Below are positions 4,156 through 58,751 of a DNA stretch of 64,000 bases, piece after piece. The notes beneath the pieces were generated by a model. The model was given only the letters and a program-made list of their open reading frames with translations. It had not been told where the DNA came from and made no database searches. The position numbers and the translations under genes are program-made. Source of the DNA: an uncultured Caulobacterales bacterium (GTDB lineage Bacteria > Pseudomonadota > Alphaproteobacteria > Caulobacterales > Parvularculaceae); contig CAZHUI010000008.1 in NCBI GenBank assembly GCA_964535605.1, forward strand, positions 312-64,311, read 5' to 3'. Position 1 is the first letter of the stretch. The number at the start of each line of letters is the position of its first letter.

Positions 4156-5016
4156 GTGCGCGCCGATATTGCCGCCATGAGTCTTTCCGGTCTTCCCTTC
4201 CGCAAGATGAACGGCCTTGGCAATGATTTTGTCATTGTCGATTTGCGCGGGGGACGCGCGCGCATGACCGAAGACGCCGCCCGCGCGATCGCCGACCGAA
4301 AGACCGGCGTCGGCTGCGATCAGGTCATCACCATCGAAGATCAGGACGGGCCCTATATGGGCGTCTGGAACGCCGACGGGTCGGAGGCGGGCGCCTGCGG
4401 CAACGCGGCGCGCTGCGTCGGCGCGATCCTGATGGGGGAAACAGGCGACGATGGCGTCGGCTTCGAGACGCGTTCAGGCTTCATCGCCGCCGAGCGCGTC
4501 GGCGCCAACCGCGTCGCCGTCGATATGGGCGCGCCGAAATTCCACTGGAAACAAATTCCGCTCGCGGAGGAAATTCAGGACACGCGCTTCGTCGACATCA
4601 AGCTCGGCCCCATCGACAAGCCCGTTTTGTGGGGCCCTTCGGCCGTCAATATGGGAAATCCCCACTGCATTTTCTTCGTCGATGACGTGACGGCGCACAA
4701 GCTCGAGATTTTCGGGCCGATGATTGAAAACCATCCGATGTTTCCCGACCGCGCCAATGTCTCGCTGGCGGAAGTCAAAGGACGCCAGCTCATTCGCCTG
4801 CGCGTCTGGGAGCGCGGCGCGGGGATCACGAAGGCCTGCGGCACCGCCGCTTGCGCCGCCGTCGTCGCCGCGAACCGGCGCCGGCTTACCGACCGCAAGG
4901 TCAGCGTCGAACTTGACGGCGGGCTGCTCGCCATTGAATGGCGCGATGACGACCATGTCATCATGACGGGCCCCTACGAATTCGAGTTCGACGGCGTCCT
5001 TCCGGAGGGCCTCTGA
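4156..5016 (+). CDS. dapF: Diaminopimelate epimerase
   Basis: KMNGLGNDF, CGNAARC, NMGNPH, ERGAGITKACGT motifs. Start GTG 4156 or ATG 4177. Confidence 0.97.
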   Translation: MRADIAAMSLSGLPFRKMNGLGNDFVIVDLRGGRARMTEDAARAIADRKTGVGCDQVITIEDQDGPYMGVWNADGSEAGACGNAARCVGAILMGETGDDGVGFETRSGFIAAERVGANRVAVDMGAPKFHWKQIPLAEEIQDTRFVDIKLGPIDKPVLWGPSAVNMGNPHCIFFVDDVTAHKLEIFGPMIENHPMFPDRANVSLAEVKGRQLIRLRVWERGAGITKACGTAACAAVVAANRRRLTDRKVSVELDGGLLAIEWRDDDHVIMTGPYEFEFDGVLPEGL

Positions 5017-5019
5017 GCC

Positions 5020-5604
5020 TTGGCGAAGCTCTACTTCAACTACGCCGCCATGAACGCCGGCAAATCGACGGCGCTCTTGCAGGCGGCGTTCAACTACCGC
5101 GAACGCGGCATGAAGACGCTGATCTTTACGGCCGCGATCGACCGGCGCGCCGGCGAAGGAATCGTCGCCTCGCGCATCGGTTTGCAGGCGCCCGCGCACG
5201 TCTTTGACGCCGCAACCGATCTTTTCGAGGAAATCGACGCGGCAATCCGCACCGACAGCGTATCCTGCATCTTCGTCGACGAGGCGCAGTTTCTCTCGCG
5301 CGAGCAGGCGATGCAGCTTGCCCGCGCCGTCGATCAACTCAATCTGCCTATCCTGTGCTTTGGTCTGCGGACTGATTTTCGCGGCGAACTGTTTCCGGGA
5401 AGCGAGCGGCTTCTCGCTGTCGCCGACGAAATCCGCGAACTGAAAACCATCTGTCATTGCGGACGCAAGGCGACGATGAATTTGCGCGTTGACGCCTCCG
5501 GCGGCGCGGTCGGCAGCGGCGCGACCATCGAAATCGGCGGCAATGAGCGGTATGTGCCGCTCTGCCGCAAGCATTTTTACGAACGGCTCGGCGCGGTGCG
5601 CTAG
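5020..5604 (+). CDS. tdk: Thymidine kinase
   Basis: AMNAGKST P-loop, VDEAQF, GLRTDF, CHCG zinc site, [14 protein letters not shown]. Confidence 0.97.
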
Positions 5605-8365
5605 CCGAACGCGTCGTAAAAGTGAGAAATGCCGACCGCAATTTCCTTGATGCGGCCATCGAGCGCGCGCAGCGGCTCGACGATTTCGCGCTGGATCTGC
5701 GGATAGCCGCCGGCCCCCTCGCCGCGCGGCGCGGCTTCGGCGAGGTCCGAGAGCGCCGCGGAAACCGGCGCAGTTTCCGGAAATATTTCCGAGATGACGC
5801 CCGCGACCTCCTCAAAGCGCAGATCGAGCGCCATATCGACAAGGTCTTCGTGCGTCATTTCATGGCGCGACGAGAACGCCGGGGTCGCAGCAGCCAGCGC
5901 AAAACCGTCGCTCACGAGCGCCAGCCGTATCGCGTGAAGGACGTAGAGCGGTTCGCTGAAGGCGGGCGGCGCGCTTTTTCCGATCAACGCGATCGCCGCG
6001 TCAAATTTCTGGCGGTCAATGGACAGGAGGTTGGCGAGGCGCCCCAGCGCGACGTCGAGCGCGCGCGCGTCGAGCCTGCCGGCGACGCGGTGCAAGGCGA
6101 GCGCCGCCCCGCGGTCGTCAAGCCGCGCCGCGGTCACGGTCCAGAACGCCGGATCATAAAGACTGGCGTACGTCCTGAGGATCGACAGCGACGTCAGCCG
6201 TCGCGCCGTCTCGGCCGCGCCCAGCACAAGGCGCATGCGCGCCGAGCCTTCGATAAGGTCGCGGAACCGCTCCGGCTCGCGCTCGGCCGCGGTCCCGACG
6301 CCGCCCATGACATTGGCGAGCGCGGCCAGCTGCTGCAGCACGGCGTTGTGCGGAATGGCGCGCAGCGCCCGCGCCTCCTCCTTCGCCCCCGGCTTGCCGC
6401 GGCGCAGACGCCGCGACCCCGACGAAGGCAGAAGATTTCTTGAGAAAGCGGCGAGCGCCGCCTGATAGTTTTCATCCGCCCACAAATCTTCCTGCCAGCC
6501 CTTGATCGCGCGATAGACATCCCAGGAAAAATTGATGTCCTTGTAATAGCGGTCGTTGAAATCGGCCTGCGGCGTTTCCTGCGACCACGCGAAGACCGAC
6601 TGGATCGTCGCTTCGGCGAGCGCGGGCGTCTGGAAATGCAGGAAACCGTCGCCGCCCTGAAAGCTCGTCTCCGCGTTGACGGCGATGCCGTCGCGCGCAA
6701 AGCGGCTGCGCGCCCAGGGCGTCATCAGATAGTCGAGCCGATCGCCGAAGCCGCCGGGATGAGCGCCCCGCCCCATCGATTCGCCGTGCGTATTGAAAAC
6801 GACGACCTCGACATCGGTGACGCGCCGGGCGCTCAAGGCCCGGCTGACGAGGATATGCAGGCGTTCGATCGCCAGGTCCGCCGCGATCTGGCCCATGAAG
6901 CGGCCGCTGTCGGAAAAGCCGCACTGGATCGACACGCGCCCGCGCCGGCGGACATAATCGACATACTCCTCTTCTTCGAGGAGACGCTCGATGAGGCGCC
7001 CGCCCCGCTCGATCGCGTCCGGCGTTTCGAACAGCGGCGAAATGTCGAGCCGGTGATCGACGCCGTAAAGGCGCGCCAGATAGATCGCGCCCATCACCGT
7101 CGCCGGCGCCTCGACTTCCGCGATCAGAAACCGGATCGGCGCGTCTTCGTCGATATGTTTCAGGATCTGCGCGCACAGCATGAACTGGCGGCGCGCCGTC
7201 ATCTGCTCTTCAAAGACGCTCGCGAAATTGATCGTGCGTTGCTCGGCCGATGCGGTCTTCGCCGCTGCGGCGTCGAGCGCGGTCCGGTCAAGAAAGGCGC
7301 GGTCGCCGCCAAGGCCGAGATCGGCGCGCAAGGCGGAGCGCACCTGCGCGGCGTTGACGCGCAAGTGAATACGCGCGACGCCGAGACCATAAAGGTCCAT
7401 TTCGGCGCGGATGACGGCGAGCGCGAAGGCGACGTCGTCATCGGCGCCGGCGATCAGCTGCGTCAGCGCCGCGCGCGCCTCGCGGAGCGAGGTCAAGCGC
7501 GCCGGTCCGTCCGCCGTCAGACGGTTGGCGGCGGCGACGACGGCGGCGGGATCGGTGAGGTCGGCGGCAAAGCCCTCCGCCTGCTCGGCCGCTTCCGCGC
7601 CGGCGTCGGCGAGCGCGGCGGCGAGACCGCGCGCCGGCTCGATCTTCTGCAGCGCCTTGGCGTACCGGAAAAGCTGCAGCGCTTTTTCCTCGAGGCGCAA
7701 CCGCACCGTCGTCGCCCAGTGAATATCGGTGCGCCCGTCCAGATCATAGCCGACCCAGGTCGCAAGACTTACCGGCGCCGGCGAGGCTTCGCGCCAGCGA
7801 TCCGGATGGCGTTCCTTCATCCAGCGCAACACCGAGATCGTCAGGGTACGGATCGCGTCCTGCGCGCGCCCGATCGCCCCTTGCACGTCTTCATGTTCGT
7901 CGAGCAGCGAGATCGGCCGGTCCGGCGTCTGTCGCGGCAGATCGACGGCGCCGAGCGCGCTGGAAGCAAGGTCGCCGATCAACCGGCGCGCCTCGCGCGA
8001 CAGCGCGAAGGTCGGGTGCGCGGTGAAGACAACGCCCGCCTTTGTCTGTTCGATCGACTGTTTGGCGATCTCGAACGGCTCTTCGTCAAGGCGGTCCCAG
8101 GCCCCGGCGATGAGATCGCTCCAGGCGCGAGGTGGCGCCTTCGCCGCGAGGCGGCGCGCCCGCTGCACGAGCGCTTCGTCGGCGATGAGTTTAGCGAGCG
8201 CCGAGAGTTTCTCGTGATCGATCTCGCCGGCCCTGAGCTTCTCGCGGAGATCGACCATCAACAGGCGCACGCCCGACGCCATCGGATCGCGTGTCGTCGA
8301 GGCTTCGTGCGCGCGAAGCCGTTCAAGGCACCAGTCGCGCAGCGCCGATATGTCCGCACCCGCCT

Positions 8366-48560: not shown

Positions 48561-48871
48561 GGCGGGCGCCCCGATTTACCTTTAGCCAAGGCAATCCCGG
48601 ACCTTAGCGCGGTTTGCTTCAACACGACAGGCCGGCTGCCGCCTTGCGATGCAATCTGAGGCCGAAAAGGCGTAGGCGACTTAAGAAGCCGAAAGTGCAT
48701 CGCAAGGATTGCTGCCAGGCGTTTTGGAGAAGGGAACCGGCCGGCCCTATGCTCGCCGTTTCGCGTCCATTTTTCGCCCCGGCGCCCGTGACGATCATTA
48801 CACCCGGAAGCCGCCGCCGTATTTCAAAAGACGTCCTCGCCAACGCTGGACTAGGTCTGAATCGGCGGCTC

Positions 48872-48886
48872 TTAACATTTTGTTAG
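48872..48886. promoter_or_regulatory. Near-consensus CtrA box (TTAA-N7-TTAG)
   Basis: TTAA CATTTTG TTAG, one mismatch to TTAA-N7-TTAA, 54 bp upstream of the kinase ATG. Confidence 0.45.
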
Positions 48887-48939
48887 CCAATTCGGACATC
48901 TCTTTCATGGTGTTCTCAATCACTTCCCGCTTTCCAGCC

Positions 48940-51093
48940 ATGGACGGCTTCCGAAACGACGCTGAGACGAAGGCGACGCTTGAGCACGAAGAAATTCTGC
49001 GCGCGCGCGTCCTTGACGTCGGCGCTGCGGCGGCGGTGATCCTCACCCTCGCCCACGCCTTGTTGACTCAAATCGAAGTGTCAGGCTGGACCGACTCCCG
49101 GCTCGCCGGCGTTGCGGCCGCGCTTTTCTTTGCGCTCTGCCCGGTTATGCGTCGACTGACCGGCGGCGTGGCGTTGGCGGGATCTGTCTTTTTAACGACG
49201 CTGTTGGCGGCGTCGGCTTTTGCAGCGTTACGCAACGGAGGACTAACCGCGCCAACGACGGCGTTCATTATTCTTGCGCCGGCTATGGCCGGGCTGATGC
49301 TCGGCGGAAGAGCCGCGATCGTCACCGGATTGGCGAGCCTCGGCGTCCTCGCCCTTTTAGTGAACGCAAAGGAGATCGGCCTCGCGCGCTCGTCGCCGCA
49401 CACCTTAGCAGAACTTGAAGTGCTTCGGCTTTCGGCCATCGCGATCTCGGTCATAACCGCGACCGTCGTCGTAACTGCTTTTCAACTCGTTCTGCGCCGA
49501 ACCATCCTCGCCCTGAGCGTCGTAAACGCAGAGCTTACCGCATCAGAGAGCGGCATAAAGCGCAAAGCCGAAGAACTCGATCTGATCTTTAACAACGTGC
49601 CGGTGCACTTGTATTTCAAAGACGACCAGAACCGGATTCTCCGTGCGAACAAGACGGCTGCGTCCGGCGCGGGATGCCCGGTCGAAGCCCTCGTCGGCGC
49701 GCCGACTGAGGCTATATTTCCAGAATTGGCGGCGAAATATTTCGCGGATGATCTCGCCGTGATTGAGAGCGGCGCGCCGCGGCTCGGCATAATCGAGGAG
49801 CTTGCGCCGGCGAGCGGTCGGCGCGGCTGGGTGAGAACCGACAAGGTCCCTTATGTCGATCCTTCGACCGGCAAGCGATACGTGTTCGTGGCCGCGATCG
49901 ACATCACGGAGCAGCGGTTGGCGGAGCTCGCCCTCGCCGAAAGCGAGCAACGCTTCGCGCTCGCAGCGCAAGGGTCAGGTGCGGGCATCTGGGACTGGGT
50001 CGATGTCGCGGGCGACCGACATTTCTGGGCGGGGCGTTTCTTCGCGCTGCTCGGATACGCGCCCGACGAGATTGCGCCCTCGGCGACCGCGCTCCGCGCG
50101 CTTCTGCATCCGGCGGACAAAGCCGATTTCGATGCGGCGATGCAGGCGCATCTTTCAGGCGCGGAGCCGTTTCAGCGCGACCTGCGCCTGCGCCACAAAA
50201 CGCTTGGCTTTCGCTGGTATCGGATGACGGGACAAGCGATCTGGAACGACAAGGGCGAAGCAAGGCGCATGATCGGATCGATCATCGAGATCAATGCGGA
50301 AAAATGCGCCGAGGAGGCGTTAGTTGCGCGACAGCGCGCGCTTGAGCGTTCAATTCAAGATCTCAAAGCGTTTTCGCAAGCGGTGTCGCATGATTTGCGC
50401 TCTCCTTTGCGGGCCTTTGACCACCTCGCCGGCTGGGTCGAAGAGGAGCTTGCCGCAGGTCGCTTCGACGGCGCGAAGTCGCATCTCGTCATGATGCGCG
50501 TGCGTGTGAAACAGATGACTGAGCTGCTTGACGGCCTTCGTCTCTACGCGCTGGCGGGCGCGCGCGCGGAAATCGCCGAAACTGTGGCGAGCCGGCGTCT
50601 TGTCGAGCATTCGTTCGAGGTCTTGGCGCCTGCGTTTTTTTCGCTGAAGGTCGAGTCGGATCTGCCTGAATTCGAAACCGCCGCCGCGCCGCTTTCCCAG
50701 GTGTTTCGGAATCTGTTCGACAATGCGATCAAGCACCATGATCGTGAGGCTGGCGTCATCGCCGTGCGCCATTTCGAATCCGGGGACTTCTGGGCGTTCG
50801 AGGTCAGCGATGACGGGCCCGGCGTTCCGGCGGCGCATCACGAGCGCATCTTCGACATGTTCGAGGTCTTGCATCGACGCAATGAACATATGGGCGCCGG
50901 CGCGGGCCTTGCGATCGTAAAAAAATGCGTCGAAGCGGCGGGCGGGACCGTTGCTGTTTGGTCAGGAGCTCCGCTGGAGCGCGGGTCAACCTTTCGCTTC
51001 CTTTGGCCGAAGCGATGGCCGGAAACTGGCGGCGCTCGCGACGAGGCTGAAAACGCCGCGCTTCATCGCGCCGACGGTTCGCGCGCCGCTTGA
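48940..51093 (+). CDS. Membrane PAS-PAS sensor histidine kinase
   Basis: About five N-terminal TM helices, two PAS/PAC domains, VSHDLRSPL H-box, NLFDNAIKH, DDGPG, GAGAGL. Start uncertain (48907 or 48940). Confidence 0.92.
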   Translation: MDGFRNDAETKATLEHEEILRARVLDVGAAAAVILTLAHALLTQIEVSGWTDSRLAGVAAALFFALCPVMRRLTGGVALAGSVFLTTLLAASAFAALRNGGLTAPTTAFIILAPAMAGLMLGGRAAIVTGLASLGVLALLVNAKEIGLARSSPHTLAELEVLRLSAIAISVITATVVVTAFQLVLRRTILALSVVNAELTASESGIKRKAEELDLIFNNVPVHLYFKDDQNRILRANKTAASGAGCPVEALVGAPTEAIFPELAAKYFADDLAVIESGAPRLGIIEELAPASGRRGWVRTDKVPYVDPSTGKRYVFVAAIDITEQRLAELALAESEQRFALAAQGSGAGIWDWVDVAGDRHFWAGRFFALLGYAPDEIAPSATALRALLHPADKADFDAAMQAHLSGAEPFQRDLRLRHKTLGFRWYRMTGQAIWNDKGEARRMIGSIIEINAEKCAEEALVARQRALERSIQDLKAFSQAVSHDLRSPLRAFDHLAGWVEEELAAGRFDGAKSHLVMMRVRVKQMTELLDGLRLYALAGARAEIAETVASRRLVEHSFEVLAPAFFSLKVESDLPEFETAAAPLSQVFRNLFDNAIKHHDREAGVIAVRHFESGDFWAFEVSDDGPGVPAAHHERIFDMFEVLHRRNEHMGAGAGLAIVKKCVEAAGGTVAVWSGAPLERGSTFRFLWPKRWPETGGARDEAENAALHRADGSRAA

Positions 51094-51298
51094 TGCCCAA
51101 GCGAGAACGCGCGGCCGCGAGCTGACGGCCCCTATTCGGCTCAATGCCTTATCGTTGGTCGCGCTTTTCCTCGCAGGCGGGCGACGGTCGATCGCGCCAC
51201 CAGAGCGTGTCGGGCGCTGTCGCATCTCACGCGGGTTGACGACGGCGTCAGGCGCGGTTCGAGGTGAAGGTCGCGTCTGGCGGCGCGACAATCTATCG

Positions 51299-51460
51299 CT
51301 ATGCGCCCACGAGAACGGCGCAGCAATTTCGCCAGACGTCATCGGCAACGCCCAGCATCGCCAAGGCCGCAACGACATGGATGGCGCAGACGAGTACTGG
51401 ATAACCAGGAGGCGTACGGCGCGCACCGTGAATAAGTTCGCGCGTGAGCATGCCGATCAT
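51299..51460 (-). CDS. Possible small hydrophobic peptide (53 aa, MIGMLT...)
   Basis: ATG 2 nt after the stop of the 51463..51657 ORF; one hydrophobic stretch; no recognisable family. Confidence 0.3.
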   Translation of the reverse strand: MIGMLTRELIHGARRTPPGYPVLVCAIHVVAALAMLGVADDVWRNCCAVLVGA

Positions 51461-51462
51461 GA

Positions 51463-51657
51463 CTAGATCGCCGACGTCGTTGTCAGGGCGACCCCATCCC
51501 AGCAAACGCGGCTATCGTCGACTAGAAGCCTGTCGAGATCGGCGCGTTCCGGACGGTCGATCGTCACCGCCGCGCAGCGGCGCTGCGCAAACGAATTTTC
51601 CGAATTGGACGTTATAATGTTTCCCATGCCGATAATGGCGGCGAACAGCGTCAGCAT
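51463..51657 (-). CDS. Small (64 aa) possibly exported peptide divergent from luxR
   Basis: Strong RBS GGGAGGG 7 nt before ATG; hydrophobic N-terminus; two Cys. Confidence 0.5.
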   Translation of the reverse strand: MLTLFAAIIGMGNIITSNSENSFAQRRCAAVTIDRPERADLDRLLVDDSRVCWDGVALTTTSAI

Positions 51658-51868
51658 TGTCGAGCCCTCCCAGCAACGTACCTTTCATAGTAGAGCCCCG
51701 CGCACGCGCGCCCATCCCCAAATGAGGAGGCGCCGCAAGGCCGAAGTGCGTCAGCGCGCCTCTTTACGTCGAGGCGCAAGCGGCGTCATGATTGCGGTCG
51801 CGATCTGTCGGGGGAGTAAAAGTCGACGTAACCTCTGTTAAGCAGCTTGCAAATAGGACCCTCTCATT

Positions 51869-52612
51869 ATGAGCCATGCCCCCGATCGGCTGGAGAGCTC
51901 CGGCGTTCTCGAGGCAATCGCGGCGATCGACGCCGGCGCGTCGTCGCAGGCCGTGTTCGACCGTTTCGCTGACTTTGTCGGCGTTTTCGGCTTCACGACG
52001 GTAGCGCTCGGTCATCTCGCCAATCCCGCGATGAAATCCGACCGGGCGAAAGACTGGTTCACGATAGGCAATTGGCCAGCCGACTGGCGGCGCGAATGGC
52101 TCGACCAAAGGTTAATCTTCCACGACCCGATCGCGCGCATGGCGCTGCGGACCCGCAAGACCTTCACCTGGAGCGCCGCCTATGAACAGGCGTCGCGTTT
52201 CGAGCGCGCCGTCCTCGATCTGAGCGCGGATTTCGGTTTCCGCGACGGCCTCGCCATTCCGTTATATACGGAGGACGGACCGCCCGGTTGCGTCTCCATT
52301 GGCGCTGCGTCTGTCGATGTCTCGCCGCGGGAAAGAGCTGCGATCGAACTCGTCGCCATTCACGCATATGCGTGTCTGGAGAAACTCCACGGCCCGTTCG
52401 CCTATCGTCCTGTGAAGAAACTTACCCCGCGCGAAGTCGATGTTCTGCATTTCGCAGCCGCCGGCAAGACAAACTGGGAAATCGGAACGATTCTGTCGAT
52501 CAGCGAGTTCTCCGTGCGCGATCATTTGTCATCCGCGCAGAGAAAGCTCAATTGCGTCAATCGCGCGCATGTCATCGCGACAGCGATGCAGCGCTGCCTG
52601 ATTTTTCCGTAG
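51869..52612 (+). CDS. luxR: LuxR-family quorum-sensing regulator
   Basis: Autoinducer-binding domain (NWP.DW...W........DP, FTW, DG) plus LTPRE.....AAGKTNWEI..IL.IS HTH. Confidence 0.93.
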   Translation: MSHAPDRLESSGVLEAIAAIDAGASSQAVFDRFADFVGVFGFTTVALGHLANPAMKSDRAKDWFTIGNWPADWRREWLDQRLIFHDPIARMALRTRKTFTWSAAYEQASRFERAVLDLSADFGFRDGLAIPLYTEDGPPGCVSIGAASVDVSPRERAAIELVAIHAYACLEKLHGPFAYRPVKKLTPREVDVLHFAAAGKTNWEIGTILSISEFSVRDHLSSAQRKLNCVNRAHVIATAMQRCLIFP

Positions 52613-53623
52613 TCAAGCCGCCGCCAAGTCGTCATAGAGGCGGGAGAGCGCGGCGCCCGGGAACGGTCGAGGCCAGACGCGCGGATAATCGCGCGAGTAG
52701 AGCGGGGCTCCGTCGGCGGGCGGCGTTTCGACCCAGGGCTGCGCGATCGCGCCGGCCTTATCGCAATACCGGATATCGTCGCCGCAATATCGGAATGAAA
52801 CGGCGCGGCGCATCCTGCGCGCGGATTTGTTTCCCGAACTTCCGTGCACGGCGAAGACGTCATGGATGACGACGTCGCCGGGCGCCGCATCGACGCGAAC
52901 TATGTCATAGCGGCTGCGGTCGCCTTCGATGTCCGGCAAGCGAGCGGCTTGACTTGCAGCCGTCGGCGTCTGGCTGATCAGCAGGTTTGGCGCAAACTCC
53001 TGATTCCAGAGATGCGATCCGCGCACATATTCCAGCGCGCCGTTCTCCTCATCGACGGGATCAAGCGGGATCCAGACGATGCAGCATTTGCGGCCGCTGA
53101 TCTGGAAATAGGTGTAGTCCTGATGGAAGGCCGTTCGTTGAGTTGCGCCCGGCGTCTTCACAAAGGTCGTGTCTTCCCAGAAATTGACATAGTCGCTGGC
53201 AAGAAGCGACGCGGCGATCTCAGGGAGGCCTGAGTCCAGCGCAACGCGGCGGATTTCCGGAAATCGTCGCCAGCCGGCCGCGTCGTAAAAAAACCGGCCC
53301 TCGGGCGCGCCGGTTTGCGGCTCGTCCAGCAGCGGACGCGCGGCGGGATCGGCGTCGATAGCCGATTTGAGCCGGCTCATGTCAAAGCGAGAGGCGCCGC
53401 GGGCGTCGAGACTGCGGTCGCCGCCCCAGACCTGACGCGCAAGGTCCTGAAAGTCATAAGCCGACGTCGAGCGCCCGAAGGCGCCGAGTTGGCGATCGAC
53501 GGCGGCGCGCAGAAGATCGACCTCATCCGGCGAGAGGGCGCCGGAGATCTTGACGAAGCCGTCGCGCGCGTAAGCGTCAGCGAGCGCAGGATCGAGATCG
53601 GCGGCGGCAAAGACACTGGTCAC
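52613..53623 (-). CDS. Fe(II)/2-oxoglutarate dioxygenase, PhyH family
   Basis: RDGFV start, HQD...H facial triad (FHQDY, VHGS), WIPLD.V...NGAL..V.GSH, RRAVSFRY; GTG start overlaps the luxI TGA. Confidence 0.9.
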   Translation of the reverse strand: MTSVFAAADLDPALADAYARDGFVKISGALSPDEVDLLRAAVDRQLGAFGRSTSAYDFQDLARQVWGGDRSLDARGASRFDMSRLKSAIDADPAARPLLDEPQTGAPEGRFFYDAAGWRRFPEIRRVALDSGLPEIAASLLASDYVNFWEDTTFVKTPGATQRTAFHQDYTYFQISGRKCCIVWIPLDPVDEENGALEYVRGSHLWNQEFAPNLLISQTPTAASQAARLPDIEGDRSRYDIVRVDAAPGDVVIHDVFAVHGSSGNKSARRMRRAVSFRYCGDDIRYCDKAGAIAQPWVETPPADGAPLYSRDYPRVWPRPFPGAALSRLYDDLAAA

Positions 53624-54297
53624 GCCGCTCTCCGCGGCTCGGCGTCAAGCCAGCGCGGGTCGATCGCATCCCAGCGTTCGCGAATGACAAGGGCCGGCTC
53701 GCCGGGCGCCAGCGAAAAAGACGTTCGCAAGCGCGCAAGCCCTTCGGCCGTCATCTGTGAGATTGCGGCGACATAAGTCTGGTCGTCGTCCGGAAATTCC
53801 TGCGGCAAACCGAGAGGCGCAGTGTCCCACACTTGCACTGCGCGCTGATACATGGAGCGGTAGGAGAACCACGACAGGGCCCGGACGCCGGTGCGCAGAC
53901 AAAACTCATTAATGCCCGCCGAGAGGCGCCCGCGAATGCGGAACTGATCATCCTTGGACAGCGCCGCGTGATCGATCACATACCGCGAAAACTCGTAAAT
54001 TGAGGGATCGCGCGGCGGCGGCTGCAAATCGCAGAACTCGTGGAATACATCGGTCAGCATATGCGGGCCGGTCGTTGGATTAAGGCGCGCGGCGCCGACG
54101 AGGCGCTCGCCGGCGCCGGCGTAAGCAAGCACATAGATAGTGTGATCGGTATCGAAGGCGTCCTTGTCGTATCCGGGGACGACGCCGGGAATTTTCCATC
54201 CCCACTGCTCGACGGCGACGCGGTACCGCAGACGATACATGTCGTCGAGCGTGGCTCGACGCGCAGCGTGGTCGCCAGGGGTGATGATTTCGATCAT
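53620..54297 (-). CDS. luxI: LuxI-family acyl-homoserine-lactone synthase-like protein (atypical)
   Basis: YRLRYRV....WGW, D.FD, Y.L, GAARL.PT..P.ML..VF, YEFSRY motifs. Confidence 0.85.
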   Translation of the reverse strand: MIEIITPGDHAARRATLDDMYRLRYRVAVEQWGWKIPGVVPGYDKDAFDTDHTIYVLAYAGAGERLVGAARLNPTTGPHMLTDVFHEFCDLQPPPRDPSIYEFSRYVIDHAALSKDDQFRIRGRLSAGINEFCLRTGVRALSWFSYRSMYQRAVQVWDTAPLGLPQEFPDDDQTYVAAISQMTAEGLARLRTSFSLAPGEPALVIRERWDAIDPRWLDAEPRRAA

Positions 54298-54351
54298 GGC
54301 TATCTCCCGTAACTGCGGTGGAGTGTTCAGCGAAGGGCGCCTTAGACGCCA

Positions 54352-54369
54352 CCCCTACAGTCGTAGGGG
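54352..54369. promoter_or_regulatory. Perfect 18-bp palindrome, candidate lux-type box
   Basis: CCCCTAC-AGTC-GTAGGGG centred about 63 bp upstream of the luxI ATG. Confidence 0.6.
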
Positions 54370-54462: not shown

Positions 54463-54915
54463 ATGGAGATGACGCCGATCCTGTTTCTCATCGACGACGA
54501 CGCGGTCGATCAGGAAGTGTTCCGCCGCGCGCTCGCCGCCGAAGGCGTCGCTGTAGAGATCGCGGTGATCGGCGAAGGAAACGGCGCGGCGGCGAAGGTG
54601 AAGGAGCGGCTGGCGTCGACGAGCGCCGGCAGGCAGGCGCTGGTTGTTCTCGACCTCAACATGCCGGGCGTGAACGGCTTTGAAGTTCTGGCGGCGCTGA
54701 GGGCGGAGCCGGCGACACGGCTGACGCCGGTCGTCGTATTTTCGACGTCCACTGATCGGGAGGATGTCAGACGCGCCTACGGTCTCGGAGCGAATTCATA
54801 TGTCGCCAAGCCCAGCGAATTTCCTGCTTTCAAACGCGCAGTGCGCGTTATTACTGACTATTGGTTCGCTGTCGCGACCGGTGCGGCGCCGCAATGGCCG
54901 CGCCGGGCGAGCTAA
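54463..54915 (+). CDS. Single-domain response regulator (Rcp1-like)
   Basis: IDDD, LDLNMPG.NG, FSTS, NSYVAKP. Confidence 0.92.
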   Translation: MEMTPILFLIDDDAVDQEVFRRALAAEGVAVEIAVIGEGNGAAAKVKERLASTSAGRQALVVLDLNMPGVNGFEVLAALRAEPATRLTPVVVFSTSTDREDVRRAYGLGANSYVAKPSEFPAFKRAVRVITDYWFAVATGAAPQWPRRAS

Positions 54916-55018
54916 ACTCTCACCTCCTCATTTGGGGATAGCGGCCGGCGCGGGCTGTCTTATGATCGGCATGCTCACAATCGCACAATTCCCCGCGTGG
55001 ACGAGCATGCACCCAAGA

Positions 55019-55052: not shown

Positions 55053-55164
55053 CCCGCGTGATCGGCGCGCGCCCTCCCCATCTGCGGATATCGGCGCCCA
55101 GTTCTTAGGCTAGGATTGTTTGGTTGCGATGCGCCGATGCGATCGTCGGCAACAGGAGGGGCGG

Positions 55165-55725
55165 ATGGACGGGGACGGCAATAAACGGAACTTCCGTCGG
55201 CGTCAGATCGACGTCGGCGTCAGGTTCATCACGAGCGCGGACATGGAAGCGTCGGGCCGCCTCGAGGATATTTCCGAAGGCGGCTTTCGTATGCGAACGG
55301 CCGCCGCGGCGGAAGTCGGCGATGAAATCATCGCTTATCCGGAAGGTCTCGGGCGCCTCACTGGCACCATCATACGCAAGGACGAAGGCGGCGTTGCCGT
55401 AGCCCTCGCCCTCTCCGACGCGCAACGCGATTATCTCGCCAAGCGCATCGAGTCGGCGCTGACGGGCGTTCCTTATCTCAAACTTTTCGAGAAGCGCACG
55501 CATCAACGCCTCGATCTCAATCTCGACTCTTCGGTCGCCGACGCGACGACTGGCGAAACTTTTGAATGCCGTATCGTAAACCTCTCCGCGACCGGGGCTC
55601 AAATTCAGTCGGATTATCGGCCGCCGCTTGGCGCCGAAGTCTGCATCGGGGAGATGCGCGGGCAAGTGGTGCGGGTCGGCAGCGACGGTTTCGGCCTGTC
55701 GTTTATTCGCTCAGCCGCCGCCTGA
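55165..55725 (+). CDS. Tandem PilZ-domain protein
   Basis: RxxxR-like/DxSxxG pairs twice (FRRRQ...DISEGG; KRTHQR...NLSATG); AGGAGG RBS. Confidence 0.85.
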   Translation: MDGDGNKRNFRRRQIDVGVRFITSADMEASGRLEDISEGGFRMRTAAAAEVGDEIIAYPEGLGRLTGTIIRKDEGGVAVALALSDAQRDYLAKRIESALTGVPYLKLFEKRTHQRLDLNLDSSVADATTGETFECRIVNLSATGAQIQSDYRPPLGAEVCIGEMRGQVVRVGSDGFGLSFIRSAAA

Positions 55726-56435: not shown

Positions 56436-58751
56436 TCAGGCGGCGGTCTGCGGCGCAGCGTTATCGGTCGATCGGGCGACCAGTAACGCGCGCGCTCCGC
56501 TCCAGGATCGCACCATGTCGTCGAGCGCTGCGTCCGCCGCCGTCCTGTCGCCGGGCCCGCGCTCGAGCCGCGCGGCGGCGTCGCGAAGTCTCGCAGCGCC
56601 CCAATCAGCGGCGAGGCTCTTGACTGCATGCGCTGCCGCTTTGGCTTCGGCGACGTCGCCGACTGTTAGCGCGGCGCGGGCGGCGGCAAGGAGACGGTCG
56701 ATGTCGATCATCGCGGCGCGCAAGCAGGTTTGCGTTTCAGCGGCGCCGATCAATGCGGCGATCGCGCGGAACGGGCCTTCCTCGAGGAACAACGCCGGCA
56801 TCCCCGGCGATACCGACTGCGCGCAGTCGGCGGTTGGCGGCAACGGGATTGTCGCGCCGACCGCGGCGCCAAGCGCGGCGTAAAGCGCCGCCGGCTTAAC
56901 CGGCTTCTCAACAAAAAATGCGATGCCCGCGTCCGAACAACGCTGGCGATCCGCCGCGGAAACAGCGGCCGTGTAGGCGATCATCGGCGTCGCCGCCGCA
57001 GAACCGGCGAGCGCGCGGATCTGCCTTGCAGCGCCGACGCCGTCGATTCCAGGCATTTGCAGATCAAGCAGGATCGCGTCAAAGCGGCGCGCACGAAGCC
57101 GTTCGAGCGCCGCTTCAGCGCTGCTGACGGTGTCGGCGATGATTCCGGCGCGGGCGAGCAATCGCTCGGCGAGATAGCGGTTGGCCTCCTGGTCGTCGAC
57201 AATAAGCACTTCGAGCACCGAGCCCAGGTCGCCCGGCGCGGCGATGATGGCAGGAACAGTAGCGGGCGCGGTGTCGGCGTAAAACCGGAATACGAATCGG
57301 CTACCGGCGCCGAGGACGCTGCTGGCGGTCAAAGCTCCGCCAAGCGTCGTCGCCAGTTTCGCGGAAATGGCGAGGCCAAGACCGGCGCCGCCGAACCGTG
57401 CTGGCGTTGCGACATCGGTCTGGGAGAATCGGCGAAACAGCTGCGCCAAGACATCAGAGGACATGCCGGCGCCGGTGTCTTCTACAGCGATGGTCACGTC
57501 CTGGGCGCCGCCCCCGGCCGCGCGCGCATCAAGCGCAACCGTGATCGTACCGCGCTCAGTAAATTTGATCGCGTTGCCGACGAGATTTAAGAGGATCTGG
57601 CGCACACGGGCGGCGTCGGTCGCAAGCGCGGCCGGAAAGCCGTCGGCGATAATGAGCCGCAGCGCAACCGGGCGCGCGAGCAACGACGGCCGCATTAAAT
57701 CGACGACCGACTGCGCAAGGCCTGCGAGGTCGCAAGAGCCGATCGACGGCTCGAGTTTCCCAGCGTCGAGTTTGGCCAGATCGACGAGGTCGTTGGCGAG
57801 CGTCAGCAACCCTTCGGCGGCGGTTTTAGCGATCACGATCTGGCGGCGCTGGTCGAGCGTCAGGCTTTGCGCGTCAAGAAGATCGAGCATGCCGAGAATA
57901 GCGGTGAGCGGCGTACGGATTTCGTGGCTGATGTCGGCGACGAATTCAGACTTGGCGGCGTCGGCGGCTTTCGCAGCGCGTTCGCTGTCGCGCAGGCGCG
58001 CAACAGCCTCATCGAGAGCGCGCACTTGGCGGTCACGATCGGCAAGCATTTTGTCCGTCGCGCAGGCGGCGGCGATTCCGGCGAGCAGGAGACAGGTGAC
58101 GACGAAGACGACGGATTGGAGCGAGGCGGAGGAAAGATCGGCGGCGAGTGGGCTGGCGGCCGGCGGGCTTTGCGCAAGGATAAGCAAGTTAAGCGCAGTC
58201 ACGAGACCGCCGGCAGCGGCGACGCCGGCGAACCGCCGCAAGGGCGGGAGATCTGGGCGGAAAGCAAGGACGGAGGCGACGAATATCGCAGCGAGAAGCG
58301 CGGCCCCGGGCCCAGCGGCCGCAAGATCGAAAAGGCGCCCCGGATCGAGATGAACGCTTCTGAGGCCGACATAATGCATCAAGAGGACATTGGCGCCCAG
58401 GACCGCGGCGCCGGCGAGCGTCGCGGCGCGATTCCGGCGGTACATGATTATCAGGAATGCAAAGGCGCAGGCCAGGTGGACGCATAAGGCGGCGATCACG
58501 GTGTCGGCCGCGCCGATCACGAGCGAGCGGTCGGCGTTGAGAGCCAGAGCGCTCAGATAGTAATTCGCCCAGAGGCCGTTGGCGGCGACGGCGGCGCCGG
58601 CGAGCGTCCACAGGGCGCGGCGCGGCCCGGTGTGCGAATCGGCGCGGGCGAGAATTGACGAAGACATGGCGCCCGACCAAACGCTGGTGGCGCCCGCAAG
58701 CAAGACAAGGCCCGCGCTGGCGTCGCCCTGCAGACCTATTTCCAGACCCAT
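56436..58751 (-). CDS. Hybrid sensor kinase: MHYT-like TM domain, HisKA, HATPase, REC, Hpt
   Basis: LMHYVG, ISHEIRTPL, NLVGNAIKF, DTGAG, GAGLGL, VDD...LDLQMP...KP, AHAVKS. Confidence 0.92.
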   Translation of the reverse strand: MGLEIGLQGDASAGLVLLAGATSVWSGAMSSSILARADSHTGPRRALWTLAGAAVAANGLWANYYLSALALNADRSLVIGAADTVIAALCVHLACAFAFLIIMYRRNRAATLAGAAVLGANVLLMHYVGLRSVHLDPGRLFDLAAAGPGAALLAAIFVASVLAFRPDLPPLRRFAGVAAAGGLVTALNLLILAQSPPAASPLAADLSSASLQSVVFVVTCLLLAGIAAACATDKMLADRDRQVRALDEAVARLRDSERAAKAADAAKSEFVADISHEIRTPLTAILGMLDLLDAQSLTLDQRRQIVIAKTAAEGLLTLANDLVDLAKLDAGKLEPSIGSCDLAGLAQSVVDLMRPSLLARPVALRLIIADGFPAALATDAARVRQILLNLVGNAIKFTERGTITVALDARAAGGGAQDVTIAVEDTGAGMSSDVLAQLFRRFSQTDVATPARFGGAGLGLAISAKLATTLGGALTASSVLGAGSRFVFRFYADTAPATVPAIIAAPGDLGSVLEVLIVDDQEANRYLAERLLARAGIIADTVSSAEAALERLRARRFDAILLDLQMPGIDGVGAARQIRALAGSAAATPMIAYTAAVSAADRQRCSDAGIAFFVEKPVKPAALYAALGAAVGATIPLPPTADCAQSVSPGMPALFLEEGPFRAIAALIGAAETQTCLRAAMIDIDRLLAAARAALTVGDVAEAKAAAHAVKSLAADWGAARLRDAAARLERGPGDRTAADAALDDMVRSWSGARALLVARSTDNAAPQTAA

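Follow-up and report, generated by a model that had tools for sequence, protein, structure and literature searches.

Organization of the luxI locus

The 64,000-nucleotide stretch of DNA analyzed here (hereafter, the window) derives from an uncultured Caulobacterales bacterium of the Parvularculaceae, and it carries luxI, a PhyH-family dioxygenase gene, and a convergent luxR (Table 1). Both gene junctions described in an earlier sequence-only reading of this locus were recovered. The plus strand reads TCAC where luxI meets the dioxygenase gene (i.e., GTGA on the minus strand), and the resulting overlap of the luxI stop and the dioxygenase start is 4 nt, with a GGAG ribosome-binding site of its own. 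At the other end, the luxR TAG occupies 52610-52612 and the dioxygenase TGA, read as its complement, takes up the next three positions, 52613-52615, so that the gap at the junction 52612/52613 is 0 nt. This layout supports the view that luxI and the dioxygenase gene form a translationally coupled pair.

Table 1. Genes and sequence signals of the luxI-dioxygenase locus
Feature	Positions	Strand	Basis
luxR, LuxR-type receptor/regulator, 247 aa, convergent on operon	51869-52612	+	Autoind_bind + GerE
PhyH-family Fe(II)/2OG dioxygenase, 336 aa, LuxI-linked subfamily	52613-53623	-	PF05721
GTGA, luxI stop TGA/dioxygenase start GTG overlap	53620-53623	-	sequence reading
Dioxygenase ribosome-binding site GGAG, within luxI 3' end, 6 nt ahead of GTG	53630-53633	-	sequence reading
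luxI, LuxI-type acyl-homoserine-lactone synthase, 225 aa, operon gene 1	53620-54297	-	PF00765
luxI ribosome-binding site GGGAGA, 5 nt ahead of ATG	54303-54308	-	sequence reading
lux-box-like palindrome CCCCTAC-N4-GTAGGGG	54352-54369	no strand	sequence reading
Response-regulator receiver gene, stand-alone, divergent from luxI	54463-54915	+	PF00072

The lux-box-like palindrome occurs once in the window, centered ~63 nt 5' of the luxI ATG and inside the 165-nt gap to the divergent receiver gene. It is kept 5' of luxI in loci L029, L031, and L032 although the flanks diverge, and the receiver gene is syntenic in L029-L031. We infer that LuxR binds this palindrome, and the receiver gene may be a second target of it.

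Features of the dioxygenase

The dioxygenase matches PF05721 with 107 bits (cut-off, 22). Its HxD...H/R catalytic set had been described as intact, and indeed H167-x-D169, H260, and R272, i.e., the iron and 2-oxoglutarate (2OG) residues, are all in place and do not vary among 48 homologues. In addition, the AF2 model (pLDDT, 94.4) matches MysH, SnoK, and PHYH and displays the double-stranded beta-helix fold along with the HxD...H motif and the 2OG-binding Arg. To judge from these residues, the enzyme is catalytically intact. MysH is its nearest solved relative (E 3e-30), followed by SnoK/SnoN, proline hydroxylase, EctD, and GriE, all of which act on free small molecules; human PHYH, the true phytanoyl-CoA hydroxylase, is a remote structural match (13% identity, rank 42). 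By structure too, MysH and SnoK/SnoN, which are small-molecule tailoring enzymes, rank best. A halogenase of the SyrB2/chlorinating-enzyme type was considered and rejected: such enzymes have HxA or HxG in place of the carboxylate ligand, but here the Asp, D169, is retained without exception, and the TIGR01762 score was only 21 bits (cut-off, 226).

Residues of the synthase and the receptor

The luxI product scores 66.5 bits against PF00765 (cut-off, 24), with the match spanning profile positions 6 to 131 of 183, i.e., only the N-terminal two thirds. Its best solved relatives are 6wns, BjaI (5w8a), TofI, and RpaI (E 1e-16 to 1e-19). Eight of the 10 residues of the conserved N-terminal catalytic set of LuxI (R24, F28, W34, E44, D46, D49, R70, E101, S103, and R104) are identical, and luxI keeps R24, W34, D46, D49, R71, E102, S104, and R105. 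At position 28, luxI has Ala in place of the Phe or Tyr found in the references (BjaI, TofI, and 6wns alignments), and Asp replaces Glu at position 44, which is a conservative change. Of the synthase residues previously called atypical, F28A and E44D are thus seen, whereas SRY also stands in BjaI and so is nothing unusual. The fold and most of the catalytic residues are common to the window's luxI and the BjaI/RpaI/6wns-type and TofI-type synthases at ~30% identity; unlike these, members of the window's LuxI clade all carry Ala, Val, or Ile at the Phe28 site and have Asp at the Glu44 site. To our knowledge, none of BjaI, RpaI, 6wns, and TofI is encoded with a dioxygenase.

Both domains of luxR are present, and its ligand pocket was aligned with those of TraR, CviR, RhlR, and QscR (residue numbers are those of TraR). 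Relative to TraR, the receptor shows Y53W and Y61W and retains W57, D70, P71, and W85; the alignment therefore bears out the Y61W change noted earlier and adds Y53W to it. Receptors of the window's clade vary at pocket residues that are normally fixed, with positions 53/57/61 reading W/W/W in the window and W/L/R in the Hyphomonas clade (W57L, Y61R).

The sequence-only reading had taken such atypical LuxI and LuxR residues as a sign of special chemistry, and we rejected this argument. F28A and Y61W are found clade-wide, and F28A and the W/W/W pocket also occur in close relatives whose genomes lack the dioxygenase altogether, so neither F28A nor Y61W is evidence for dioxygenase-dependent chemistry.

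Conservation and loss of the luxI-dioxygenase linkage

We analyzed 80 dioxygenase-anchored loci, 7 of which had no luxI upstream; since 3 of those 7 are contig ends, 77 loci were informative. In 73 of these, luxI lies directly upstream on the same strand, which removes the possibility that no other genome keeps the linkage. Conversely, the dioxygenase gene is found downstream of 78 of the 97 distinct synthases in the window's LuxI clade. The pairing is far beyond chance. The 4-nt overlap also occurs in L029-L031 and in ~25 Hyphomonas-clade loci (as ATGA or GTGA), where it is kept at a LuxI identity of 43%. Moreover, the genes co-diverge (Mantel r = 0.86 for LuxI-PhyH and 0.96 for LuxI-LuxR), with the dioxygenase changing least of the three (mean identity of 50% versus 40% and 38% for the other two). 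Collectively, the linkage is near-obligate, long-lived, and co-diverging, and our data support the view that the pair has persisted as one unit in many families of Alphaproteobacteria. The dioxygenase subfamily is found mainly in Hyphomonadaceae, Robiginitomaculaceae, Parvularculaceae, and Micropepsaceae, and its cultured carriers include Hyphomonas jannaschiana VP2, H. oceanitis SCH89, H. chukchiensis, and Hirschia litorea.

Only luxR, luxI, and the dioxygenase gene are conserved in these neighborhoods, and a search there for further pathway genes shared among the loci (CoA ligase, ACP, exporter) found none. Thirty-one loci have an XRE-type HTH gene, which the window lacks. Gene-fusion (Rosetta-stone) support for the pairing was also sought and had to be discarded for the window's dioxygenase subfamily: no ORF in 163 loci matched both profiles, and no LuxI-dioxygenase fusion appeared among the best 120 matches to a concatenated LuxI+PhyH query.

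The dioxygenase subfamily is almost confined to luxI neighborhoods, and its oxygenase therefore probably modifies or controls the signal; this confinement, together with catalytic intactness, fits a role in signal chemistry. There are exceptions in both directions. The dioxygenase has been lost at least five times with luxI and luxR intact each time, and nested subclades with both of these genes have no dioxygenase at the locus or genome-wide. In locus L140, luxR is followed by the dioxygenase gene and luxI is missing, and in three Rhizomicrobium loci the orthologue lies after a thiolase gene and before a GntR/FadR-like gene. The nearest paralogues without luxI linkage stand alone next to a LysR regulator, an uninformative context. 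Because luxI and luxR are kept through repeated loss, the dioxygenase is accessory to the signal-receptor pair rather than essential, and we read it as a tailoring step that tunes the identity or properties of the signal and that the circuit can do without.

A proposed two-enzyme signal pathway and its alternatives

Acyl-homoserine lactone (acyl-HSL, AHL) diversity is now explained almost entirely by the choice of acyl donor made by LuxI. We tentatively favor, at somewhat short of an even chance, a LuxR-autoinduced two-enzyme operon whose oxygenase would oxidize the acyl-HSL or its precursor. In this proposal, a single bicistronic message of a LuxR/LuxI module would encode the synthase and a dedicated Fe(II)/2OG oxygenase and couple their translation, and ligand-bound LuxR would activate the operon at the palindrome, such that both enzymes increase together. 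LuxI would join SAM and acyl-ACP or acyl-CoA into an acyl-HSL, which the oxygenase, with O2 and 2OG, may then hydroxylate or desaturate in its acyl chain or lactone head group, oxidation of the acyl donor being the less likely variant. The cell would therefore release its signal in modified form, either alone or together with the unmodified form.

Reciprocal linkage, the overlap, co-divergence, the invariant residues, the confident model, the small-molecule relatives, the restriction of neighborhood conservation to three genes, receptor variation, and the palindrome all count for such tailoring. The dioxygenase-free subclades, some of which have the same receptor pocket as the window, count against it, as do L140, the Rhizomicrobium loci, the ordinary AHLs of sphingomonads (see below), and the lack of a fusion. 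The two-enzyme pathway put forward in the sequence-only reading survives in part: the coupled, conserved pair and the intact dioxygenase stand, but the atypical residues lend it no evidence, the dioxygenase is dispensable, and the synteny had already been published. A more specific version is doubtful, namely, that a dedicated tailoring enzyme would yield an oxidized HSL class not yet recognized (e.g., hydroxylated at a position other than C3 or modified in the head group) and read by receptors without the canonical Y53/W57/Y61 pocket. If tailoring is true, a dedicated oxygenase would add a post-synthetic, O2- and 2OG-dependent layer to signal identity; alternatively, the oxygenase may be a built-in step of signal removal.

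In the latter case, which we consider unlikely, the oxygenase would inactivate the acyl-HSL and provide negative feedback in step with the synthase. MysH, the closest characterized relative, acts on an N-linked amino acid by hydroxylating its alpha-carbon, after which the group is lost (PMC10666671), and one possible route is a MysH-like alpha-hydroxylation beside the amide nitrogen whose product would then collapse. Repeated loss of the dioxygenase with luxI and luxR kept fits a dispensable modulator, and the occurrence of luxR and the dioxygenase gene without luxI in L140 is as expected for an enzyme acting on finished, possibly foreign, signals. However, a cell that couples translation of its synthase stoichiometrically to that of an enzyme destroying the product would seem to waste effort, and we know of no AHL-degrading enzyme encoded in a luxI operon. 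The analogy with MysH is also limited by an identity of only ~25 to 35%, which does not imply a common substrate, and by the extra ~65-residue insert of the LuxI-linked subfamily.

Ranked below signal turnover, and in our view improbable, is an oxygenase whose substrate is unrelated to the signal (a nutrient, lipid, or secondary metabolite) and which would be switched on at high cell density by way of the luxI operon. Membership in a quorum-sensing (QS)-regulated operon was the original suggestion for sphingomonad phyH (PMC3704786, PMC5012321), and both the dispensability of the dioxygenase and its few orthologues outside luxI contexts agree with a role as cargo. Nevertheless, one would not expect such cargo to stay ~95% reciprocally adjacent to luxI, to keep a 4-nt overlap, and to co-diverge with luxI in family after family, and no other partner gene is conserved. 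The presence of a second, unrelated PhyH subfamily beside luxI in sphingomonads likewise points to a link with LuxI chemistry.

The least probable alternative, in which the oxygenase would oxidize acyl-CoA or acyl-ACP first and feed LuxI a hydroxylated or desaturated donor, draws on the naming of PF05721 for an acyl-CoA 2-hydroxylase, on the CoA-dependent BjaI and RpaI among the best solved relatives of luxI, and on the thiolase and FadR-like regulator beside the Rhizomicrobium orthologues, but human PHYH is remote while the nearest relatives use free small molecules, the neighborhoods have no conserved CoA ligase or ACP gene, and the ACP-dependent TofI resembles luxI about as closely as BjaI and RpaI do, so that PDB similarity points to neither donor class.

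Comparison with known systems

MysH (PDB 9c9n), an Fe/2OG dioxygenase of mycosporine-like amino acid biosynthesis that tailors a small N-substituted amino-acid derivative (PMC10666671), ranks first among both the sequence and the structural matches (Foldseek E 5e-24 for the latter) to the window's dioxygenase, with which it shares the HxD...H...R set. The two differ in that MysH, at 262 to 270 aa, is without the insert that is conserved at approximately residues 45 to 110 of the window's subfamily. They also differ in context, which is mysABCD for MysH, whereas the neighbors of the window's dioxygenase gene are luxI, luxR, and signaling genes only.

The pairing of luxI with phyH has been known in sphingomonads since 2010 to 2013, yet it was never explained, and our literature search found no published function for LuxI-linked dioxygenases. 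In Sphingomonadaceae, a PF05721 gene lies directly 3' of luxI, on the same strand and beside luxR, and has been suspected, as a putative role, of being a member of a QS-regulated operon (PMC3704786, PMC4288048, PMC5012321); besides these descriptions of 2013, 2015, and 2016, a metagenomic clone reported by Hao et al. 2010 has the pairing as well. Sphingomonadaceae synthases expressed alone made ordinary AHLs (PMC5012321). The novI-linked locus of sphingomonads thus has the gene order of the window, but its LuxI is 31% identical to that of the window and its PhyH belongs to a different subfamily. For this reason, we rejected orthology with the published sphingomonad phyH: in the single sphingomonad example compared, from an S. 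naphthae plasmid, the protein has 263 aa versus 336 aa and aligns by BLASTP with E 1e-4 over 61 residues. In addition, no sphingomonad plasmid matched the window's dioxygenase at E <= 1e-20.

What is new, as judged from these comparisons, is that a second, unrelated PhyH subfamily independently became an almost obligate partner of luxI in marine and soil Alphaproteobacteria. Natural "knock-outs" of it, i.e., relatives with luxI and luxR and no dioxygenase, are a further new element, and together with the cultured carriers they make the question directly testable. The window's subfamily is MysH-like, bears an extra conserved insert, and appears translationally coupled to luxI, features that set it apart from the sphingomonad PhyH.

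Gene organization and regulation of the module

Our data firmly show that the window carries a LuxR/LuxI module in which the synthase gene is translationally coupled to an oxygenase gene. The junctions described in the sequence-only reading were borne out on inspection: the dioxygenase start and the luxI stop share the 4 nt GTGA, a GGAG ribosome-binding site lies 6 nt ahead of the dioxygenase GTG, and the luxR TAG lies with no gap against the complement of the dioxygenase TGA. No convincing terminator was found between these two convergent genes. The GTG is the furthest-upstream start possible for the dioxygenase, and the resulting N-terminus matches the alignment of homologues and the first helix of the solved enzyme MysH. 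The luxI ATG is preceded by GGGAGA 5 nt upstream. NCBIfam returned sub-threshold matches only, relating LuxI to a TraI-type synthase and the dioxygenase to a chlorinating enzyme and hydroxylases.

Features of the quorum-sensing module and its surroundings in the window
Feature	Position	Strand	Description
PAS histidine kinase gene	48709-51093		
PAS kinase-luxR gap	51094-51868		775 nt; small ORFs
Small ORF in this gap (example)	51463-51657	-	
Left inverted blocks	51444-51460, 51697-51730		236 nt apart
luxR	51869-52612	+	247 aa; Autoind_bind and GerE domains (Pfam)
luxR TAG	52610-52612	+	
PhyH dioxygenase gene	52613-53623	-	336 aa; Pfam PhyH, 107 bits (cut-off 22)
Dioxygenase TGA	52613-52615	-	
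GTGA overlap	53623-53620	-	
GGAG	53633-53630	-	
luxI	53620-54297	-	225 aa; Pfam Autoind_synth, 66.5 bits (cut-off 24), profile positions 6-131 only
Palindrome CCCCTAC-AGTC-GTAGGGG	54352-54369		18 nt
Stand-alone receiver gene	54463-54915		
Right inverted blocks	54962-54978, 54923-54954		7 nt apart
PilZ protein gene	55120-55725		
Hybrid kinase gene	56436-58751		with Hpt domain

The palindrome lies ~63 nt upstream of the luxI ATG, within the 165-nt gap common to luxI and the divergent receiver gene. It has a single match in the window at a 3-mismatch setting, close to the chance mean of 0.85, and therefore its uniqueness by itself is no proof. It is retained upstream of luxI in the related loci L029, L031, and L032 (64% LuxI identity), where the flanks have diverged. 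We infer that it is a putative LuxR box, which would imply autoinduction of the bicistron. The signalling genes that surround the module are syntenic in the close relatives L029-L031 (81-83%). In these relatives, the interval separating the PAS kinase gene from luxR carries two small gene calls (61 aa and 52-53 aa), neither with a Pfam hit, and the small ORFs of the window occupy the equivalent gap. In addition, two blocks recur in inverted orientation (17/17 nt and 29/34 nt) around the luxR-dioxygenase-luxI-receiver segment; these are possible regulatory sites or the remains of mobile-element ends.

Linkage of luxI to the dioxygenase gene across genomes

Metagenomic relatives with 81-83% LuxI identity have the entire neighbourhood in common, which is simple synteny. 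The co-occurrence survey suggested in the sequence-only reading found the linkage in other genomes from both directions. A LuxI-anchored scan, limited to a single genome for each species, gave 54 loci. The dioxygenase follows luxI directly and on the same strand in 39 of them, and LuxI identity in these loci falls from 64% to 30%. When the scan was anchored on the dioxygenase and the best 80 of 122 relatives were kept (36-69% identity), a LuxI-profile ORF was located immediately upstream on the same strand in 73; of the seven others, three stop at a contig end, which makes 73 of the 77 informative loci among these best 80 linked. It is firmly shown that this oxygenase subfamily is almost confined to the position beside luxI. 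The 4-nt overlap (ATGA or GTGA) occurs in the window clade and in ~25 Hyphomonas-clade loci, and clustering of all neighbouring ORFs left the dioxygenase, luxI, and luxR as the only conserved genes. The three proteins have strongly correlated pairwise distances (Mantel r: LuxI-PhyH, 0.86; LuxI-LuxR, 0.96; PhyH-LuxR, 0.89; p = 0.001 in every case), with the dioxygenase displaying the highest mean identity (50%, versus 40% and 38% for the other two). No LuxI-PhyH fusion was found for this subfamily, either among the ORFs of 163 loci or among the top 120 hits to a joined LuxI+PhyH query. An XRE-type (HTH_3) regulator of ~140 aa, absent from the window, was observed close to the module, at variable positions, in 31 dioxygenase-anchored loci (e.g., 6767-7198 in L093).

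Carriers include Hyphomonas, Hirschia, Henriciella, Hellea, Algimonas, Litorimonas, Robiginitomaculum, Marinicaulis, Hyphococcus, Parvularcula, Rhizomicrobium/Micropepsaceae, and a few others. The pair is rare overall: in an even sample of 400 genomes from the class, an orthologue at E <= 1e-50 was present in only 2, and it was found in none of the 18 other species searched in the window's own genus. One species of that genus, G011 (locus L034), encodes a LuxI 46% identical to that of the window and has no dioxygenase. On this distribution, the luxR-luxI-dioxygenase module is patchy, accessory DNA.

In a maximum-likelihood tree built from 97 distinct LuxI sequences, 78 dioxygenase-linked rows fill most of the clade and the unlinked synthases are either basal or in nested subclades (the L034/L038 pair, L035/L036 from Marinicaulis, the L039/L053/L057 group, L055, L072, and Phreatobacter). 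The starred branches require the 'unlinked' label to have changed six times or more, which suggests that the linkage is old and that the dioxygenase has been lost repeatedly. In seven unlinked genomes searched whole, no dioxygenase orthologue was found elsewhere (one has a 34% paralogue), and luxI and luxR are intact in all seven. The repeated losses show that the dioxygenase is accessory to the signal-receptor pair. The dioxygenase-anchored set also includes four loci without luxI: in L140 (3093-4990), luxR is followed directly by the dioxygenase, and in three Rhizomicrobium loci (L157, 2611-6585; L156; L159), the dioxygenase comes after a thiolase and is followed by an uncharacterised 347-aa ORF and then a GntR/FadR-like regulator.

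Synthase and receptor residues

Alignment revealed that LuxI retains R24, W34, D46, D49, R71, E102, S104, and R105, and that LuxR keeps W57, D70, P71, and W85 when aligned with TraR, CviR, RhlR, and QscR. The closest solved relatives of LuxI, namely 6wns (1e-19), BjaI (2e-18), TofI (1e-16), and RpaI (5e-16), are a mixture of CoA-dependent and ACP-dependent enzymes. Among the residues regarded as atypical in the sequence-only reading, Ala28 of LuxI (Phe/Tyr in BjaI, TofI, 6wns, and one sphingomonad LuxI), Asp in place of Glu at position 44, and Y61W of the receptor (TraR numbering) are present, and the Y53 position is also Trp; the 'SRY' of LuxI is not unusual, as BjaI has it too. The receptor pocket at Y53/W57/Y61 differs widely within the clade, being W/W/W in the window group, W/L/R (W57L and Y61R) in the Hyphomonas and Hirschia group, and W/W/Y or Y/F/Y in other groups. 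Since relatives without the dioxygenase also show the W/W/W pocket and Ala28, these are clade traits and not signatures of dioxygenase-dependent chemistry.

The Trp at the W57 position of LuxR normally contacts the lactone. We observed Leu at this position and Arg at Y61 (WPEELKAARR...DP) in L040, L043, L062, L067, L129, and ~30 other Hyphomonas/Hirschia loci, all with luxR upstream of luxI, so that these receptors have lost the lactone-contacting Trp and gained a charged pocket residue.

The dioxygenase and its possible role

Judged by its residues, the window dioxygenase is firmly shown to be a catalytically intact Fe/2OG oxygenase: H167-Q-D169, H260, R272, S276, and R278 are invariant in alignments of 13 and 48 homologues, in agreement with the HxD...H/R set noted earlier. 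A halogenase is excluded because the Asp ligand (D169) is present. The 48-sequence alignment yielded a confident AlphaFold2 model (pLDDT 94.4, pTM 0.92). MysH is the nearest solved structure both by sequence (phmmer, 3e-30) and by fold (Foldseek, 5e-24), followed by SnoK/SnoN and then proline hydroxylases, EctD, and GriE; the similarity to human phytanoyl-CoA hydroxylase is remote (13% identity). Unlike MysH and ~265-aa paralogues, the LuxI-linked dioxygenases have a conserved insert (~residues 45-110) and a C-terminal extension.

Because luxI and the dioxygenase are reciprocally linked, their coupling is conserved, the three genes co-diverge, and the nearest relatives tailor small molecules, we tentatively favour as the most likely mechanism that the oxygenase would oxidise the LuxI product, and that the cell would emit a tailored signal or a mixture. 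For MysH, the proposed reaction is alpha-hydroxylation of the N-linked glycine in mycosporine-like amino acids, with hydrolytic removal of the group afterwards (PMC10666671). The analogy with MysH and the dispensability of the dioxygenase gene leave some room for a built-in inactivation of the signal by the oxygenase, which we consider rather unlikely. A quorum-controlled function of the oxygenase unrelated to the signal is likewise improbable, and oxidation of the acyl donor is the most doubtful. The proposed two-enzyme pathway to a new autoinducer chemotype is supported in part: the conserved, coupled pair with an intact oxygenase stands, while the atypical residues no longer belong to the argument. 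The luxI-dioxygenase finding is a good lead and directly testable.

Comparison with sphingomonad luxI-phyH loci

Synteny of luxI and phyH has been published in Sphingomonadaceae, as novR-novI-phyH and 'topology T', in papers that cite a metagenomic clone of Hao et al. 2010, report ordinary AHLs from synthases expressed alone, and leave the function of phyH explicitly open (PMC3704786, PMC4288048, PMC5012321). Our literature search found no paper giving either luxI-linked PhyH subfamily a reaction. The Sphingomonas naphthae plasmid locus (L164) reads luxR-luxR-luxI-[IS3]-phyH-X-virB; in this 'topology T' locus (4636-5994), the luxI-phyH pair is split by an IS3 transposase together with a small ORF. 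Its PhyH belongs to PF05721, like the window dioxygenase, but the two match at only E 1e-4 over 61 residues and differ in length (263 aa versus 336 aa), and no match to the window dioxygenase was found on sphingomonad plasmids at E <= 1e-20. On this single comparison, the window dioxygenase belongs to a second PhyH subfamily that has likewise become a luxI partner. The locus is not a new kind of system and adds a variant to the already known, unexplained luxI-phyH pairing.
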